Source: Candidatus Nezhaarchaeales archaeon (lineage in GTDB: Archaea > Thermoproteota > Methanomethylicia > Nezhaarchaeales > WYZ-LMO8). From it: 64,000 bases of DNA. Positions 15,846-21,100 of this stretch are shown here, in pieces. The stretch is from positions 96,001-160,000 of the forward strand of contig JAWAKK010000001.1 of the NCBI GenBank assembly GCA_038887515.1, in the 5' to 3' direction. The notes beneath the pieces were generated by a model, which saw only the letters and a list, made by a program, of their open reading frames with translations, ran no database searches and had not been told where the DNA came from. Position numbers and translations under genes: made by a program. The first letter of the stretch is position 1. Every line of letters starts with the position of its first letter.

Positions 15846-16502
15846 GTGAGCAATATGTCTATAACAATAGCTTGGCATGGGCACGCCTGCTTTGAAATTA
15901 AAAACCACGTAACGATAGTGGTAGACCCTCATGATGGTACATCCATTGGGATAAAACCCCCGTCGGCTAAGGCTGACTTAGTCTTGATATCTCATAAACA
16001 CTTCGATCATGCTAATGGCTTAATGTTTGTCAAGAAAAATGGCACCGTAGTAATAGATAAGCCGGGTAATTATGAAGTCAAGGGAGTGAAAGTGGTGGGG
16101 ATACCCACCTATCACGATGAATGTCGAGGAGCTAAACGTGGATTAAATACAGTTTACCTCTTTGAATATGATGAAGTTAGGTTCTGTCATTTAGGCGACT
16201 TGGGGCATGTGTTAAGTGAAGATCAAGCCCGTTTCTTAAGACCAGTAGACGTCCTCATGATTCCTGTCGGAGGAACCTTTACTATAGACGCAAAGCAAGC
16301 TAATGAAATTATGAACTTACTATCACCGAGAATAGCAATACCGATGCACTATAAGACGCCTGGACTAAATCTACCGATAGTTGGCGTTGAAGGTTTTATT
16401 GCTGGAAAGACGAATGTAGAACGCTCACAGTCAAATACATACAGGGTATCTAAAGAGACTCTGCCTAGTAAGTTAAAAATAGTTGTGTTAAGTCCACTGT
16501 AA
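15846..16502 (+). CDS. MBL-fold metallo-hydrolase
   Basis: GHACF, SHKHFDH, HLGDLG, IPVGG and IPMHY motifs. Confidence 0.9.
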   Translation: MSNMSITIAWHGHACFEIKNHVTIVVDPHDGTSIGIKPPSAKADLVLISHKHFDHANGLMFVKKNGTVVIDKPGNYEVKGVKVVGIPTYHDECRGAKRGLNTVYLFEYDEVRFCHLGDLGHVLSEDQARFLRPVDVLMIPVGGTFTIDAKQANEIMNLLSPRIAIPMHYKTPGLNLPIVGVEGFIAGKTNVERSQSNTYRVSKETLPSKLKIVVLSPL

Positions 16503-16643
16503 CCGACTTAAGTCTCTTATGTGATGTGACTCTTAGGGGATCTAGTGCATGGTCTTTGGGCTAACGTGTTTCATAAAGGTTGCCACAAGAATTTCTCGAA
16601 CCTCAATAACCGAAGATGGTTCAGAAGAAGTGCGAGTTGATGC

Positions 16644-16961
16644 ATGTTGTCGACCATAATAATATCGCCTGAATTCGATATAATACTCGATCCTGAAAAT
16701 ATGGTGATAGGTGAAGCTAGAAGCGACTTAGCTTTACTAGACGTTACGCCCATAGACAAGAAGATTGGCGAGCTCAATGACATAATAGATGTACTGTTCT
16801 GGTCTTTCGATCCAAAAGTATCGACTTCAACGACGCCTAGATCCGGGAAAAGGGGGTTGCCGTTAAAGGTTTACTACTTGCCAGACATGATACTAGGCTT
16901 CCTCGTAGGCTTAGCGCTGTTCAGCCTAATAATAGCGATGCACTTTACATTAACTCTATGA
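16644..16961 (+). CDS. mtrB: Tetrahydromethanopterin S-methyltransferase subunit B
   Basis: ISPEFDIILDP...IGE, I..LNDIIDVL..SFDP, C-terminal TM helix GFLVGL; directly before mtrA. Confidence 0.8.
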   Translation: MLSTIIISPEFDIILDPENMVIGEARSDLALLDVTPIDKKIGELNDIIDVLFWSFDPKVSTSTTPRSGKRGLPLKVYYLPDMILGFLVGLALFSLIIAMHFTLTL

Positions 16962-16994
16962 ATGCTAACGCAAAAATATTAAAGAGTGAGGTAA

Positions 16995-17768
16995 ATGTTC
17001 GTGAGAACCCTTCAAAAAATGAAAGTTGAGCTGGCACCAAATTGGCCCGTAGCGGTTGGAGACTACGTAGTTGGAGATCCTAAAGGTTGTGTTGCGATAT
17101 GTACGTTGGGGTCTGAAGGGATATGCTCATTCCTAGTAAAAATGCCGGGAGTCGCAATAGTTGGACCTTGTAAAACTGAGAACGTAGGTTTAGAGAAAAT
17201 AATATTAAACGTAATATCAAATCCAAACATTAGGTTTTTAATAGTATGCGGAATCGAAGTTACAGGCCACTTACCAGGTCTCTCCTTTAAAGCTCTTTAC
17301 GAAAACGGCATAGAGCCGGCAACTAAGAGAATCAAGGAAGCACCTGGAGCAATACCTTATATAGAACACTTGACCGTTGAAGCTGTGGAACGTTTTCAAA
17401 AACAGGTACAATTTATAGACATGATAGGGGTTGAAGACATAAACATAATTAAAGCTAAAGTCGAAGAACTCGTAACACAAGATCCAGGAGCTTACCCTGA
17501 GCCTCCATTTATCGTAGATATCGAGAAAAAAGAGACGAGAGAAACCACTATACCTAAGTTAATTTTGGTTCCATCAATCACACCATCACTGTCAACCCTA
17601 TCGGCATTAATGAGTGACGTAAAGCGTAGAGTGCAATTAATAGAAAGAGAAAGGAAAATTATAACTGCTGTAGAAGTTACAAGAGCTTGGAGTATAGTAG
17701 CGGGGATATTACTTGCCTTCTTGCTCTTTGGTCTACTAGCACTTGTAGTGATTTTAGGAGGAACATAA
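16995..17768 (+). CDS. mtrA: MtrA corrinoid-binding domain fused to an MtrF-like stalk/TM
   Basis: WP..GDY.VGDP, CTLGS, KTENVGLEK, SNPNIRF, EVTGH (Co ligand His), GAIPYIE; C-terminal DVKRRVQLIER...TR...GILLAFLL is MtrF-like. Confidence 0.93.
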   Translation: MFVRTLQKMKVELAPNWPVAVGDYVVGDPKGCVAICTLGSEGICSFLVKMPGVAIVGPCKTENVGLEKIILNVISNPNIRFLIVCGIEVTGHLPGLSFKALYENGIEPATKRIKEAPGAIPYIEHLTVEAVERFQKQVQFIDMIGVEDINIIKAKVEELVTQDPGAYPEPPFIVDIEKKETRETTIPKLILVPSITPSLSTLSALMSDVKRRVQLIERERKIITAVEVTRAWSIVAGILLAFLLFGLLALVVILGGT

Positions 17769-17769
17769 A

Positions 17770-17973
17770 GTGTCTTCCAAAAGAACCAAGGAAGCGTATA
17801 CAGCTGAAATTGCTTACATCGAAGCTAGAATTAACGATATAACGACGAGAATACAAATGATCGGAGAGAAAGGTAGGTTCACCACGGGGTTTTATCGGGG
17901 CTTCTTTAAAGGCTTCATAATTGGATTGATGGTATCGATAGTGTTACTAACATCAATATTGATAGTTATGTGA
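17770..17973 (+). CDS. Small single-TM Mtr stalk subunit (sits at the mtrF position; sequence resembles the MtrA C-terminal anchor)
   Basis: EIAYIEARINDITTRIQMIG...G...KGFIIGL; located between mtrA and mtrG. Confidence 0.7.
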   Translation: MSSKRTKEAYTAEIAYIEARINDITTRIQMIGEKGRFTTGFYRGFFKGFIIGLMVSIVLLTSILIVM

Positions 17974-17988
17974 GAGGCGCAAAGTAAT

Positions 17989-18216
17989 ATGTCGCTCGAT
18001 GAGGAAGAATTTAGAGTACCGACAGTTATAGCTCCACCGGAAATCGTTCAACTACATTCAAAGCTTAATGCAATAAACGAAAAAGTGAACTTCACGCTCA
18101 GCGAAGTAGCTCACAAAGAAGGTCTAAGAATGGGTAGCTATATAGGTTTCCTTTACGGTTTCTTAACAGGCTCTATGATAATGTTAGTACTTAAGTTTGT
18201 ACTTAGGATCCTGTGA
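17989..18216 (+). CDS. mtrG: Mtr subunit G
   Basis: VPTV...KLNAINEKVNFTLSE...G...IGFLYG. Confidence 0.85.
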   Translation: MSLDEEEFRVPTVIAPPEIVQLHSKLNAINEKVNFTLSEVAHKEGLRMGSYIGFLYGFLTGSMIMLVLKFVLRIL

Positions 18217-18257
18217 GGAGCTGAAATTAGCGTTTTATAGACCCAGCGATGAACTAT

Positions 18258-19763
18258 TCATTCCTCGCATTCGTTTCTTGTCGAACTTTCATTACTACGC
18301 TTAACTTTACGCTCCAGTTTTTGAAACTTTGCCCTTAAGCTCAATATACAGCCCATCCCCCTATTACCTCCTAGAGGATTCTGCGGCGTCCCCAAGGAAT
18401 GTAAACACCTAGCCATTACATTAGCCCCCAAGGCTAAGCCGTCTTCAACGAACACGACTCTTCTATTGACGTCGTCGTTAAATACGCCAAGCTCGTCAAC
18501 ATACTTAAGTATTAAGTAAGGCTTTAGACCTGTTATTCCTGCCCTTCCAGTTATACCTATGGTGTAATTATCATTTATTAAACCGTGCGCTATTAAGGTC
18601 TCCAGGACTCTTTTAGCTATAAGAGCTGAAGTATAATCCAGTATCGCTAAGAGCGTCTTGCCTCCATATTGACTGTAGAACTCGTGACCTAGTGACCGCA
18701 ATTTAGGTAAGTAACTTCCATTATCCCCTACATCGCATCCTATCAGTAATACTCCTTGCTCGCACGCTAACTTTGCATTAATGGGTATCATGCCCACGCG
18801 TACTGCACTTGGAAGGACTTTCCTTACGTCTATGTACTTATGCACTTCATAAGCTAATTCCTCGCACTTCTCAGCATCTATGACGTCTTTGGTCTTAATG
18901 TACTCTGAAAACTCTAAAGCTGACGTCGCGACTTCGGTACCTTGAATTAAAGCATCACAAATAGCTCCAGAGAGACCACATATACTGCCTATAGTCTTGG
19001 CGTAAGGAAGTTCATCATTTGTAACCCTTCCTTTAAAGGTAGTCCCAAAATCCATGGATATTATAGGGTTTCTACAATCTACATCAGTCCACTTAGCTCC
19101 AACCTTTATACCGGCAGTCGAAAGCTCAGCTTCCATCTCATTTGCCATTATCTCACCTCCACTCTTGGGAGGTAGGCAGCCAGCAATCGCTCCATCAAAA
19201 AAGACTACATCAAGTTTTGAATATTCTTTTAAATCATCTGGAAGAGAGTTCTTAGATAAAGGTGCTATCATTTTTGACGGACTTATACCAGCTGCCAGAC
19301 AACCCTTGGCTAATGCCCTTATAACCGAGCCGACTTCTTCTGGTGTTCCAAAGCTAGCGCTAATACCTGTTGATTGCACTACAAAATGTAAATCTTTATC
19401 CCTATCTAGTCCAGCTTCCCTAACGCAAGATACGAGGAAATCCCTGATAAACTCGATTACTGCCATTTCGCTTAGCATCTTCCCCCACAAGGTATAGCCT
19501 AGTAAGCGCTCGTTGGGGTGGGGTCTTCTGATGTTTCGTGTTAGTTCGACTGCCCTCCTTACTAGGTAAATTTTTCCAGTTTTTAAATCAGTAGTAGTTA
19601 TGATGCACTTAGTAGTGGTGTTGCCAAGCTCAATTGATGCGACAGTGAAGAGTTGCCCAGTCCCTCTAGTTGTTACTTTCACAGGATCAATGAACATGCC
19701 GCGCGCAATTCTAGGGTTATACTTGCCGATTTTACCCTTTCTCTTTAAAAATTTAAGCCTCAT
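18258..19763 (-). CDS. Methanogenesis marker protein 14 (DUF2114)
   Basis: VASIELGNTTTKCI, ANEMEAEL.TAGIK, SMDFGTT, EDGLALGA.VMARC..SLGTP.NPLGG; follows mtrH. Confidence 0.88.
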   Translation of the reverse strand: MRLKFLKRKGKIGKYNPRIARGMFIDPVKVTTRGTGQLFTVASIELGNTTTKCIITTTDLKTGKIYLVRRAVELTRNIRRPHPNERLLGYTLWGKMLSEMAVIEFIRDFLVSCVREAGLDRDKDLHFVVQSTGISASFGTPEEVGSVIRALAKGCLAAGISPSKMIAPLSKNSLPDDLKEYSKLDVVFFDGAIAGCLPPKSGGEIMANEMEAELSTAGIKVGAKWTDVDCRNPIISMDFGTTFKGRVTNDELPYAKTIGSICGLSGAICDALIQGTEVATSALEFSEYIKTKDVIDAEKCEELAYEVHKYIDVRKVLPSAVRVGMIPINAKLACEQGVLLIGCDVGDNGSYLPKLRSLGHEFYSQYGGKTLLAILDYTSALIAKRVLETLIAHGLINDNYTIGITGRAGITGLKPYLILKYVDELGVFNDDVNRRVVFVEDGLALGANVMARCLHSLGTPQNPLGGNRGMGCILSLRAKFQKLERKVKRSNESSTRNECEE

Positions 19764-19767
19764 AGTT

Positions 19768-20715
19768 TTAGCCTACAAGTCTTCGATATGGATGATCTTC
19801 ACTTATGGGGAGTCCAAGCTCAAGGTGGGTTGTATCCGTCACAATAGCGTCAGCCATGGCTACTACTGGAAAAACGAATTCTGCATTCTCTATGGGTCCA
19901 TAGAGTACGAAGTTGCCACCGATAATTACTTGAAGGATGTTGCTAGCTATATCGCAGAATCTAAATATCTCTCTACCTCGGGGATGCTCTTTCTTAATTC
20001 TCTTAAGCCACGGCCAGGCCGATATAACGTTATGTAAACTGCTCCCTGTCGGGTAACCGAACTTTGACTTAATGACATACGTTGATGCTAGGGCAGCTCC
20101 TGCACCAGCTCCTAAAGTAGTTACTGCGACATCGATCAATGTAGCCTTGACTCCACACTCATTGGCAATATTAAGTAACCCATTTTTAACAACGCCTCCT
20201 CCGCTCGTTAGTATTGTAACCTTACCCCTTATCGAGGGGTCGGCCGGATTAAACGCCAAAATAACGCTATTAGGCATTTTTAGTTCTCTTAGAACATTAA
20301 ACTCTTCTTCAGTTATTGAAACGTTTATTGAGTTATATACGGCTTTATCGATAAGCCCAACCTCTTTGGCATATTTTGCGCCTTCAATCCTAACTCTAGG
20401 TTCTGTAGAATCTATTAGAAATGGAGATGGGGTGACTGATGCTACAAAATCTATGTACTTCTTCATTGCCTCGACGCTTTCGGAGAATATTTGGACCATG
20501 CAAGGGTTACCGGTTATATCGGACATTTCCTCTTGCTTCTTTATTAACGCCTCGGCTTTGTCTTTATCAAAAAGGCCTTTCCTATGGTCACTTACTATTT
20601 TATGTCCTCCATAAAATATTGTTCCAGCTAAGACCGTAGGGTTTTCGCCTGGTTGTCCTCCTATCTTAACTTTCCCTACTTGGTAAACGTACTGCTCTCT
20701 AGCGAATAGATATAT
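19768..20715 (-). CDS. mtrH: Mtr subunit H (methyl-H4MPT:corrinoid methyltransferase); frame extends 63 codons above the ORF-track ATG to a putative ATA start
   Basis: YLFAREQ...KIGGQPGENPTVLAGTIFY...DITGNP...FLIDST...YNSIN...HN..SAW.W...LYGPIENA; SD GGAGGTG 8 nt upstream of the ATA. Confidence 0.92.
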   Translation of the reverse strand: MYLFAREQYVYQVGKVKIGGQPGENPTVLAGTIFYGGHKIVSDHRKGLFDKDKAEALIKKQEEMSDITGNPCMVQIFSESVEAMKKYIDFVASVTPSPFLIDSTEPRVRIEGAKYAKEVGLIDKAVYNSINVSITEEEFNVLRELKMPNSVILAFNPADPSIRGKVTILTSGGGVVKNGLLNIANECGVKATLIDVAVTTLGAGAGAALASTYVIKSKFGYPTGSSLHNVISAWPWLKRIKKEHPRGREIFRFCDIASNILQVIIGGNFVLYGPIENAEFVFPVVAMADAIVTDTTHLELGLPISEDHPYRRLVG

Positions 20716-21100
20716 TGCAATTACACCTCCAACTAGACAACTTCACTTTTAAGATCCAAGTAACTCTTTAAGCTTTACGTGACTTAACAGTAAAGAATGA
20801 TTAGAATAATTGAAAATTAATTTAGAACACTAAGAAGCCACCTTTATCATAGGGGTCCTTCCAGTTAAGAGATTGTAAGGTTGGGAGATGTTATATTTAA
20901 ATTCGAAGTTACACTTCTAACAGATTCAGGTTAAGCGACGTTCCCGTCTAAATCTTGCCGAAGTCATGTAATCAAGGCAACTTTATGGCTTAAACCAAGG
21001 AGCATTGCCTGTCCCTAAATCGCTCTCGCCTTACGTTTATGGTTCCCCCGACAGTCTTATATACCTCTAACGTAAAAAGAATTGAGGGTTTTTACTAAAT

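Follow-up and report, generated by a model that had tools for sequence, protein, structure and literature searches.

CO2-reducing methanogenesis conserves energy at a single step, that of Mtr methyltransferase, an enzyme that works in reverse in ANME-1. Here we describe the mtr genes of a Candidatus Nezhaarchaeales archaeon, a hot-spring organism, in a stretch of 64,000 nucleotides (denoted the window: positions 96,001 to 160,000 of contig JAWAKK010000001.1, assembly GCA_038887515.1). The gene of the corrinoid protein, mtrA (16995..17768, plus strand, 257 amino acids), joins the corrinoid domain to an MtrF-type anchor, and is followed by a small open reading frame (ORF) of 67 amino acids (17770..17973, plus strand, GTG start) that appears to be the free-standing, MtrA-type anchor. 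With a probability of roughly 80% we read this locus as encoding the stalk subunits of Mtr in an alternative, regular layout, including the scaffold role proposed below.

In both solved Mtr complexes three helices formed by the MtrA C-terminus (MtrAc) make up the cytoplasmic stalk core and are ringed by MtrF, MtrB and MtrG; MtrE touches MtrF and MtrB, and the MtrH dimer docks on a beta-sheet of the MtrB, MtrF and MtrG N-termini (PMC10998594, PMC12774963). The M. mazei structure shows that it is the N-terminal arm of MtrB that docks MtrH (PMC12774963). Deviations from this plan have been described. Second MtrA copies fused to MtrF were found in Methanococcales and Methanocella arvoryzae, and copies fused to MtrG in Methanomicrobiales; these copies, mtrA-2a and mtrA-2b, always stand beside a normal MtrA (Wang et al. 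2015, PMC4632066), and the first-pass annotation of the window had correctly cited the Methanococcales case. The paper on Connectase lists MtrA variants with an A, F or G anchor or with none (PMC7980362). Closest to our locus is the operon that Mei et al. 2023 (PMC9982363) give for TACK, ANME-1 and Methanoliparia as EDCB[AF]FGH, in which the small ORF is called MtrF and the part fused to MtrA is taken as a duplicate of it.

Helix types of the fused and the free anchor

The soluble, cobamide-binding domain of MtrA lies at 17025..17543 on the plus strand (residues 11-183; PF04208, 222.3 bits, cut-off 25), and the Pfam domain stops at residue 183 of the 257-residue protein. A profile search of the organism's own genome found this MtrA domain only, bearing out the first-pass statement that the fusion alone carries the B12 domain here. 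The histidine of the GH motif is invariant in 15 of 15 aligned MtrA and corresponds to H90 of the window MtrA (P0001); from this motif we infer that H90 is the equivalent of His84, the cobalt ligand in M. marburgensis (PMC10998594).

The segment behind the domain (17568..17765, plus strand, residues 192-257) is a membrane anchor of MtrF type. Residues 194-250 match the Pfam MtrF model PF09472 with 33.9 bits (cut-off 22), and the tail scores 27.2 bits on TIGR02507, the MtrF model of NCBIfam (cut-off 25). When residues 185-257 were compared with all PDB sequences, the matches were MtrF chains only (8q3v_F, residues 3-66 of 68, 31.1 bits, E 2e-6; 9qtp_P, 22 bits), with no MtrA chain at E<=10. We also built three hidden Markov models (HMMs) from 20 textbook operons, 14 of Methanobacteriales and 6 of Methanomicrobiales, taking the seeds by position only: the last 66 residues of MtrA (A-tail), the first small ORF (F) and the second small ORF or the A2 tail (G). 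These models sort canonical lineages outside the seeds correctly; in distant canonical loci (e.g. L026-31, L041, L047, L048, L055, L056) the A tail reaches scores of 60-75 on the A-tail HMM versus 19-31 on F, and the first small ORF 39-67 on F versus -0.2 to 18 on A. The tail of the window MtrA scored 6.7, 29.0 and 5.0 bits on the A-tail, F and G models, respectively. The full-length protein reaches 239.9 bits on TIGR01111 (mtrA), below the cut-off of 249.15, and neither this model, nor the A-tail HMM, nor the PDB comparison detects an MtrAc anchor of its own at the C-terminus. Unlike the free-standing MtrF of ~70 amino acids, the F-type tail is part of the corrinoid ORF.

The 67-amino-acid ORF gave the opposite result. 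In NCBIfam it matches positions 184-235 of TIGR01111 with 39.4 bits (E 4.8e-10), compared to 28.2 and 18.4 bits on the MtrF models. Its best PDB matches are MtrA chains (8q3v_A, residues 184-233, 31.2 bits, E 1.7e-6; 9qtq_A, 24.2 bits), with MtrF chains weaker at 18.9 and 14.7 bits. On the A-tail, F and G HMMs it scored 54.8, 23.5 and 10.6 bits, and the 75-amino-acid ORF that follows it, mtrG, scored 12.4, 2.2 and 46.5 bits. The residues of MtrAc that pack on the three-fold axis in M. marburgensis are Pro185, Ala188, Ala192, Asn196, Thr199 and Met203 (PMC10998594). In the alignment with 8q3v_A the ORF has Ala, Ala, Ala, Asp, Thr and Met at these positions, four identical and two conservative, and its Phe37 aligns with Phe210 of M. 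mazei MtrA, described as a "seal" residue (PMC12774963). Similarity and residue evidence together favour an MtrAc-type rather than an MtrF-type identity for the predicted protein. The two helices had been assigned in the same way by the first-pass annotation, on the basis of sequence motifs. Its coordinates and quoted sequences are correct, the similarities greatly exceed chance, and both motifs are real, the MtrF motif being that of PDB 8Q3V chain F (..EDIKYRNQLIGRDGRLFAGLIATRISGIAIGFLLA..) and the MtrA-stalk motif that of 8Q3V chain A, residues 184-233 (APETALIEARMRNIQTQVKMIG...VQGIMIGL). The reverse assignment, with the ORF scoring best as MtrF and the MtrA tail as a normal MtrA anchor, was not what the profile tests returned.

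The GTG start of the small ORF lies 1 base after the mtrA stop codon, with a GGAGGA sequence 7 nucleotides upstream, within the last mtrA codons. A GTG preceded by such an internal GGAGGA is the sequence pattern of a putative translationally coupled gene. Together with a ratio of nonsynonymous to synonymous substitution rates (dN/dS) of 0.12-0.22, this Shine-Dalgarno sequence and GTG mark the ORF, as judged from its sequence, as a real gene. We considered readthrough or frameshifting that would fuse mtrA to the small ORF and rejected it, because the ORF is in a different frame and has its own Shine-Dalgarno sequence and GTG. Ligation of the free anchor by Connectase was likewise set aside. Connectase needs a PGA(10) motif at the start of its substrate (PMC7980362), and the anchor starts without PGA and would therefore be no substrate for ligation. 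As a separate observation, the Connectase recognition motif in MtrA (17475-17495, residues ~161-167) reads QDPGA and not KDPGA.

Two operon layouts and the families of their helices

To the mtrA loci of the organism's relatives we added those of 80 named contigs from species-representative genomes, giving 91 loci, and walked from each mtrA to the small membrane ORFs that follow. After removal of 1 weak locus, 3 duplicates and 12 short MtrA paralogues that have no anchor, 75 distinct anchored MtrA remained. An F-type tail followed by an A-type small ORF was found in 32 of the 75, spanning all Nezhaarchaeales relatives, Hecatellales, Methanomethylicia, ANME-1/Methanophagales, Methanospirareceae, Methanoliparum and Methanolliviera; two further loci have the F-type tail and a small ORF that the walk missed and that is visible in the sequence. 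The textbook arrangement of an A tail and an F ORF was found in 36 (chiefly Methanobacteriales and Methanomicrobiales, and also Archaeoglobaceae, JdFR-19 and several euryarchaeal metagenome-assembled genomes, MAGs), three loci showed only a second copy of A::G type, and two have MtrG directly after the A-type tail. None of the 75 is mixed. The swapped layout is thus clade-wide and not peculiar to this genome; it is the standard of the Mtr clade of Thermoproteota (Nezhaarchaeales, Methanomethylicia, Hecatellales), of ANME-1 and of Methanoliparia. Among the 120 best database homologues of the window MtrA, 64 have the Pfam domain of MtrF in addition to that of MtrA, and a few of the 120 bear the NCBI name "subunit F".

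Two observations concern other arrangements. In L071 and L077, from Methanobacteriota archaeon 4559-240 MAGs, the ORF walk found no MtrF-type ORF between the A-tailed MtrA and MtrG. In nine Methanomicrobiales loci the MtrA domain sits on a G-type helix (95-108 bits for the tail on the G-HMM); this A::G gene is a second copy after mtrA-1 and mtrF in L059, L067, L069, L070, L082 and L087, and the only copy captured in L060, L065 and L095.

Comparison of whole families gave the same assignment as the single sequences. In hhalign the small-ORF family scored 102.8 against canonical MtrAc tails (E 1e-20) and 51.7 against canonical MtrF, whereas the fused-tail family scored 103.7 against canonical MtrF (E 2e-20) and 41.8 against canonical MtrAc. 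These comparisons, together with the HMMs, place the small ORF with MtrAc and the fused tail with MtrF, as the first-pass annotation had proposed. A search of 1.84 billion representative proteins with a profile made from 17 small ORFs gave 31 matches: 29 A-type helices as classified by our HMMs, one true MtrF, in the last rank, and one unrelated coiled coil. Seven of the 29 have the Pfam MtrA domain N-terminal to the matched part and are therefore ordinary MtrA matched in their anchors. Also among the matches are short A-type anchors of 58-73 amino acids that start with Met at the helix (P0142-P0144 and P0146), which may be free anchors of other lineages or truncated gene calls; the A-type anchors P0132 and P0136 have resolvase-like or Arm-DNA-binding N-terminal parts and may have arisen by chimeric gene calling or by insertion into mtrA.

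Diagnostic columns were scored over 138 distinct helices in M. marburgensis numbering. Ala188, Ala192 and Gly205 are common to canonical MtrAc and the small ORFs (29, 29 and 30 of 32 small ORFs, respectively). The tyrosine of the MtrF motif, in the column of Thr199, is present in 36/36 canonical free MtrF and in 29/34 fused tails, and in this set it occurs in no canonical MtrAc and in none of the 32 small ORFs.

We then placed 108 dereplicated helices, including 18 free MtrF, 22 fused tails, 17 small ORFs and 16 canonical MtrA anchors, in a maximum-likelihood tree of 66 columns. All MtrG were united at 100. The 18 free MtrF and the 22 fused tails are, without exception, united in one clade with support of 100/99 that leaves out the small ORFs, and the tree thus identifies the fused tail as MtrF. 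Its backbone is weak and the helices are short.

The tree is also the source of one of the observations that weigh against our reading. Left free, it sets the small ORFs beside the F clade (97/86), and when they are constrained to join the canonical MtrAc tails the likelihood is 0.9 log units better (p-AU 0.544), so that on the 66 columns of the tree the small ORF may be either orthologous to MtrAc or an old sister group to MtrF. The stalk phylogeny that the first-pass annotation had called for therefore decides the position of the fused tails and not the branch point of the small ORFs. In addition, Pfam scores the small ORF of the window as MtrF with 23.7 bits, barely above the cut-off of 22. 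The F-type tail of the window has Arg for Tyr22, Glu for Gly28 and Ser for Gly44, replacing the invariant tyrosine and the conserved kink glycines of MtrF (PMC10998594), and it scores 29 on the F-HMM compared to 38-49 in relatives that have MtrCDE, which by eye retain Tyr22 and both kink glycines. Finally, the positions that we predict for the helices in the assembled stalk come from homology only.

The first two of these observations would suit the published view, in which MtrA, after losing the anchor it had, became joined to a second copy of MtrF. On this view the small ORF would be an ordinary MtrF, and the clade would have no MtrAc. Besides its statement in print (PMC9982363), this view can call on the precomputed Pfam label PF09472 of the three database homologues of the small ORF. 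Pfam, however, has no model of the MtrA anchor, since PF04208 covers the soluble domain only (173 positions), and a Pfam-based label of the small ORF can therefore only be MtrF. For the small ORF and for its family, the MtrAc score is about double the MtrF score in every comparison, and the profile search yielded 29 A-type helices against one MtrF. Canonical MtrF groups with the fused tails to the exclusion of the small ORFs, all 32 of which lack the invariant MtrF tyrosine, the Ala/Ala/Gly signature of MtrAc being present in 29, 29 and 30 of the 32. We therefore consider it unlikely that the small ORF is an MtrF.

A second alternative denies true orthology altogether: in each clade the two anchors would have had an independent origin or specialisation, and what looks A-like or F-like would be convergent adaptation to inner and outer positions of the stalk. 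MtrAc and MtrF are clearly homologous (hhalign cross scores of 42-52), and short helices with a weak tree backbone leave room for such a history. On the other hand, free euryarchaeal MtrF and the fused tails of the other clade fall into one clade at 100/99, and the matches extend over the full length of the helix at E values of about 1e-20, beyond a few contact residues. Convergence thus appears very improbable to us. An MtrAc identity of the small ORF implies that all four types of stalk helix would be kept and that only the tether point of the corrinoid domain would have moved. The first-pass proposal that four helices are conserved and the arm is re-tethered is in this respect supported, with the qualification that the layout belongs to the whole clade and not to this genome alone.

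The stalk genes in a genome without MtrCDE and MCR

The neighbours of mtrA complete the stalk. Upstream lies mtrB (16644..16961, plus strand, 105 amino acids), a stalk helix with an N-terminal arm, which scores 44.1 bits on Pfam MtrB (cut-off 27) and 48.2 bits on TIGR04166, slightly below the cut-off of 50. Downstream of the small ORF is mtrG (17989..18216, plus strand, 75 amino acids; PF04210, 52 bits, cut-off 27; TIGR01149, 52.1 bits, cut-off 50.65). The gene upstream of mtrB, at the place of mtrC in relatives, encodes a metallo-beta-lactamase (MBL)-fold hydrolase.

Between mtrG and mtrH, on the strand opposite to that of mtrB, mtrA, the MtrAc-like ORF and mtrG, is the gene for methanogenesis marker 14 (DUF2114; 18258..19763, minus strand, 501 amino acids; PF09887, 580 bits; TIGR03285, 566.8 bits). 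It stands directly upstream of mtrH and is retained despite the loss of MtrCDE and methyl-coenzyme M reductase (MCR). The mtrH gene itself (19768..20715, minus strand; TIGR01114, 321.6 bits, cut-off 271.4) is longer than the ORF listed for it, 19768-20526. Translation and DNA, followed to 20745, showed that the frame is open across the conserved N-terminus and contains no ATG, GTG or TTG there; where relatives have their Met, the aligned codon is an ATA (20715-20713), with GGAGGTG 8 nucleotides upstream of it.

The genome of the organism comprises 1.29 Mb in 9 contigs and is 93.99% complete. Profile searches of this 94%-complete genome gave no match for MtrE, MtrD or MtrC (PF04211, PF04207, PF04206), for the MCR alpha subunit (McrA) or for MttB, whereas MtrB, MtrG and MtrH are all present, as are CdhC and one gene of the URO-D family. 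In about 3% of each of two metatranscriptome runs from the study that supplied the DNA, 0 reads fell on 16500-20800, a sample that does not bear on expression. Two of the six other genomes of the genus have MtrE and McrA and four lack both, like this one. All MtrCDE-less genomes of the genus retain mtrB, mtrA, the MtrAc-like ORF and mtrG; the four others match the genome analysed here in keeping these genes together with mtrH, marker 14 and CdhC. In print, MtrCDE is missing from three species clusters of MCR-less Methanonezhaarchaeceae (PMC12700198); according to that paper the cultured Methanonezhaarchaeia strain YNP3N expresses Mtr. A Methanomethylicia MAG of the same class (G017; its loci L008 and L020 are one and the same), has MtrE and the swapped mtrA layout and gave no match for MCR alpha; it may be another MCR-less genome with full Mtr.

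Selection on the stalk genes was estimated from species pairs with unsaturated synonymous divergence; most pairs are saturated, leaving few, related genomes and a single MtrCDE-bearing pair. In MtrCDE-less pairs dN/dS was 0.07-0.11 for the corrinoid domain, 0.12-0.22 for the small ORF as given above, 0.14-0.30 for MtrG, 0.18-0.39 for MtrB and 0.28-0.54 for the F-type tail, the highest value of the stalk genes; the one usable MtrCDE-bearing pair gave 0.03-0.13. In this small sample all stalk genes are under purifying selection, which is most relaxed on the helix predicted to contact MtrE. A related observation is that the F-type tails of MtrCDE-less species (the window and L011-L013) are degraded, with Tyr22, Gly28 and Gly44 replaced and F-HMM scores of 16.6-29 bits. 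An exception is G001, a genome without MtrCDE in which the F-type tail still scores 52.

These data bear on the possibility that mtrB, mtrA, the MtrAc-like ORF and mtrG, with mtrH, are in this genome a decaying, functionless leftover of the loss of MtrCDE and MCR. Decay would agree with the absence of MtrC, MtrD, MtrE and McrA from a genome of this completeness, with the lost Tyr and Gly residues of the F-type tail, with an mtrH that has no canonical start codon, and with stalk-gene dN/dS of 0.12-0.54 in MtrCDE-less species versus 0.03-0.13 in the MtrCDE-bearing pair. It is at odds with the intactness of the five genes in 5/5 MtrCDE-less genomes of the genus, with dN/dS well under 1 (0.07-0.11 in the corrinoid domain), with the retained ribosome-binding sites and with the recurrence of the MtrCDE-less state in the three species clusters of PMC12700198. 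Mere decay of the locus is in our view improbable.

We favour instead a retained stalk of the following architecture. The sole cobamide-binding domain is joined, through a linker of ~25 residues after the DPGA motif, to an MtrF-type helix; MtrAc would be made as a separate 67-amino-acid protein whose start is coupled to the end of mtrA, and MtrB and MtrG are normal. By homology, the free MtrAc would still form the central three-helix core. The corrinoid arm would then hang from the peripheral F helix, whose N-terminus is expected in the beta-sheet at the tip of the stalk where MtrB holds MtrH. The change in the reach of the arm may be modest, given the length of the linker and the convergence of all four N-termini at the tip of the stalk.

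In this genome, which has neither MtrCDE nor McrA, the re-tethered arm would work in a remnant complex and not in a sodium pump, a further point on which the first-pass picture of the locus needs to be amended. With MtrCDE and MCR gone, the most likely sole role of the stalk is that of a membrane scaffold uniting MtrH and the corrinoid arm for methyl exchange with tetrahydromethanopterin, and this exchange would feed or drain the retained Wood-Ljungdahl pathway.

Comparison with described Mtr systems

Since the fusion and its distribution have already been published, what is new here is the identity given to the gene that follows. In a search of full-text literature other than subscription papers, the small ORF was nowhere described as an MtrA anchor, and the clade's fusion was found in PMC9982363 only; the assignment of the small ORF as the MtrA anchor and not MtrF appears new. 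Set beside the canonical operons, it suggests that there are probably two ancient Mtr architectures built of the same four helices. In Euryarchaeota the arm hangs on the central MtrAc; in Thermoproteota, ANME-1 and Methanoliparia it would hang on the peripheral MtrF, near the MtrB/MtrH sheet and MtrE, around a core of domain-less MtrAc.

If two architectures exist, the published operon formula of the ANME-1/TACK clade needs correction, and the swapped state could even be ancestral. With the A::F copies of Methanococcales and the A::G copies of Methanomicrobiales added, the corrinoid domain would then be a movable module on a fixed stalk. Structural models and mechanisms of Mtr are based on two structures, both euryarchaeal, that have the B12 arm on the central helix. 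Homology models and annotation of the other clade would accordingly be wrong in one subunit, its "MtrF" being MtrAc and some of its MtrA being named subunit F, and the arm may also differ in its reach and in its geometry with respect to MtrH and MtrE. The swap also provides a simple sequence marker for two Mtr lineages, and as such supports the proposed transfer of Mtr from a TACK lineage to ANME-1 and Methanoliparia.

Among the described systems, the remnants of non-methanogenic Methanonezhaarchaeceae (PMC12700198) resemble the genome analysed here in lacking both MtrCDE and MCR; the available text on these and on the MtrAH-only remnants (PMC9635834) does not discuss which helix carries the corrinoid domain. 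The EDCB[AF]FGH operon (PMC9982363) belongs to the same clade and agrees with our locus in the fused gene and in its distribution. It differs in the interpretation, the next gene being there MtrF and the fused part a duplicate, whereas here the next gene is predicted to be of MtrAc type. The genes mtrA-2a and mtrA-2b (PMC4632066) share with the window MtrA a corrinoid domain on a stalk helix other than A; they are second copies beside MtrA-1, giving two arms per protomer, whereas here the fusion is the sole corrinoid protein and the A helix is left without a domain. Finally, the canonical MtrA-H complex (mtrEDCBAFGH; 8Q3V of M. marburgensis, 9QTQ of M. mazei) has the same four families of single-helix stalk subunits, the corrinoid domain and MtrH, and its genes for B, G and the corrinoid domain are arranged in the same order. 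In contrast to it, the organism described here lacks MtrC, MtrD and MtrE, and its locus carries the corrinoid domain on an F-type helix; the two helices come in reverse order, and the A-type helix is a protein of its own.

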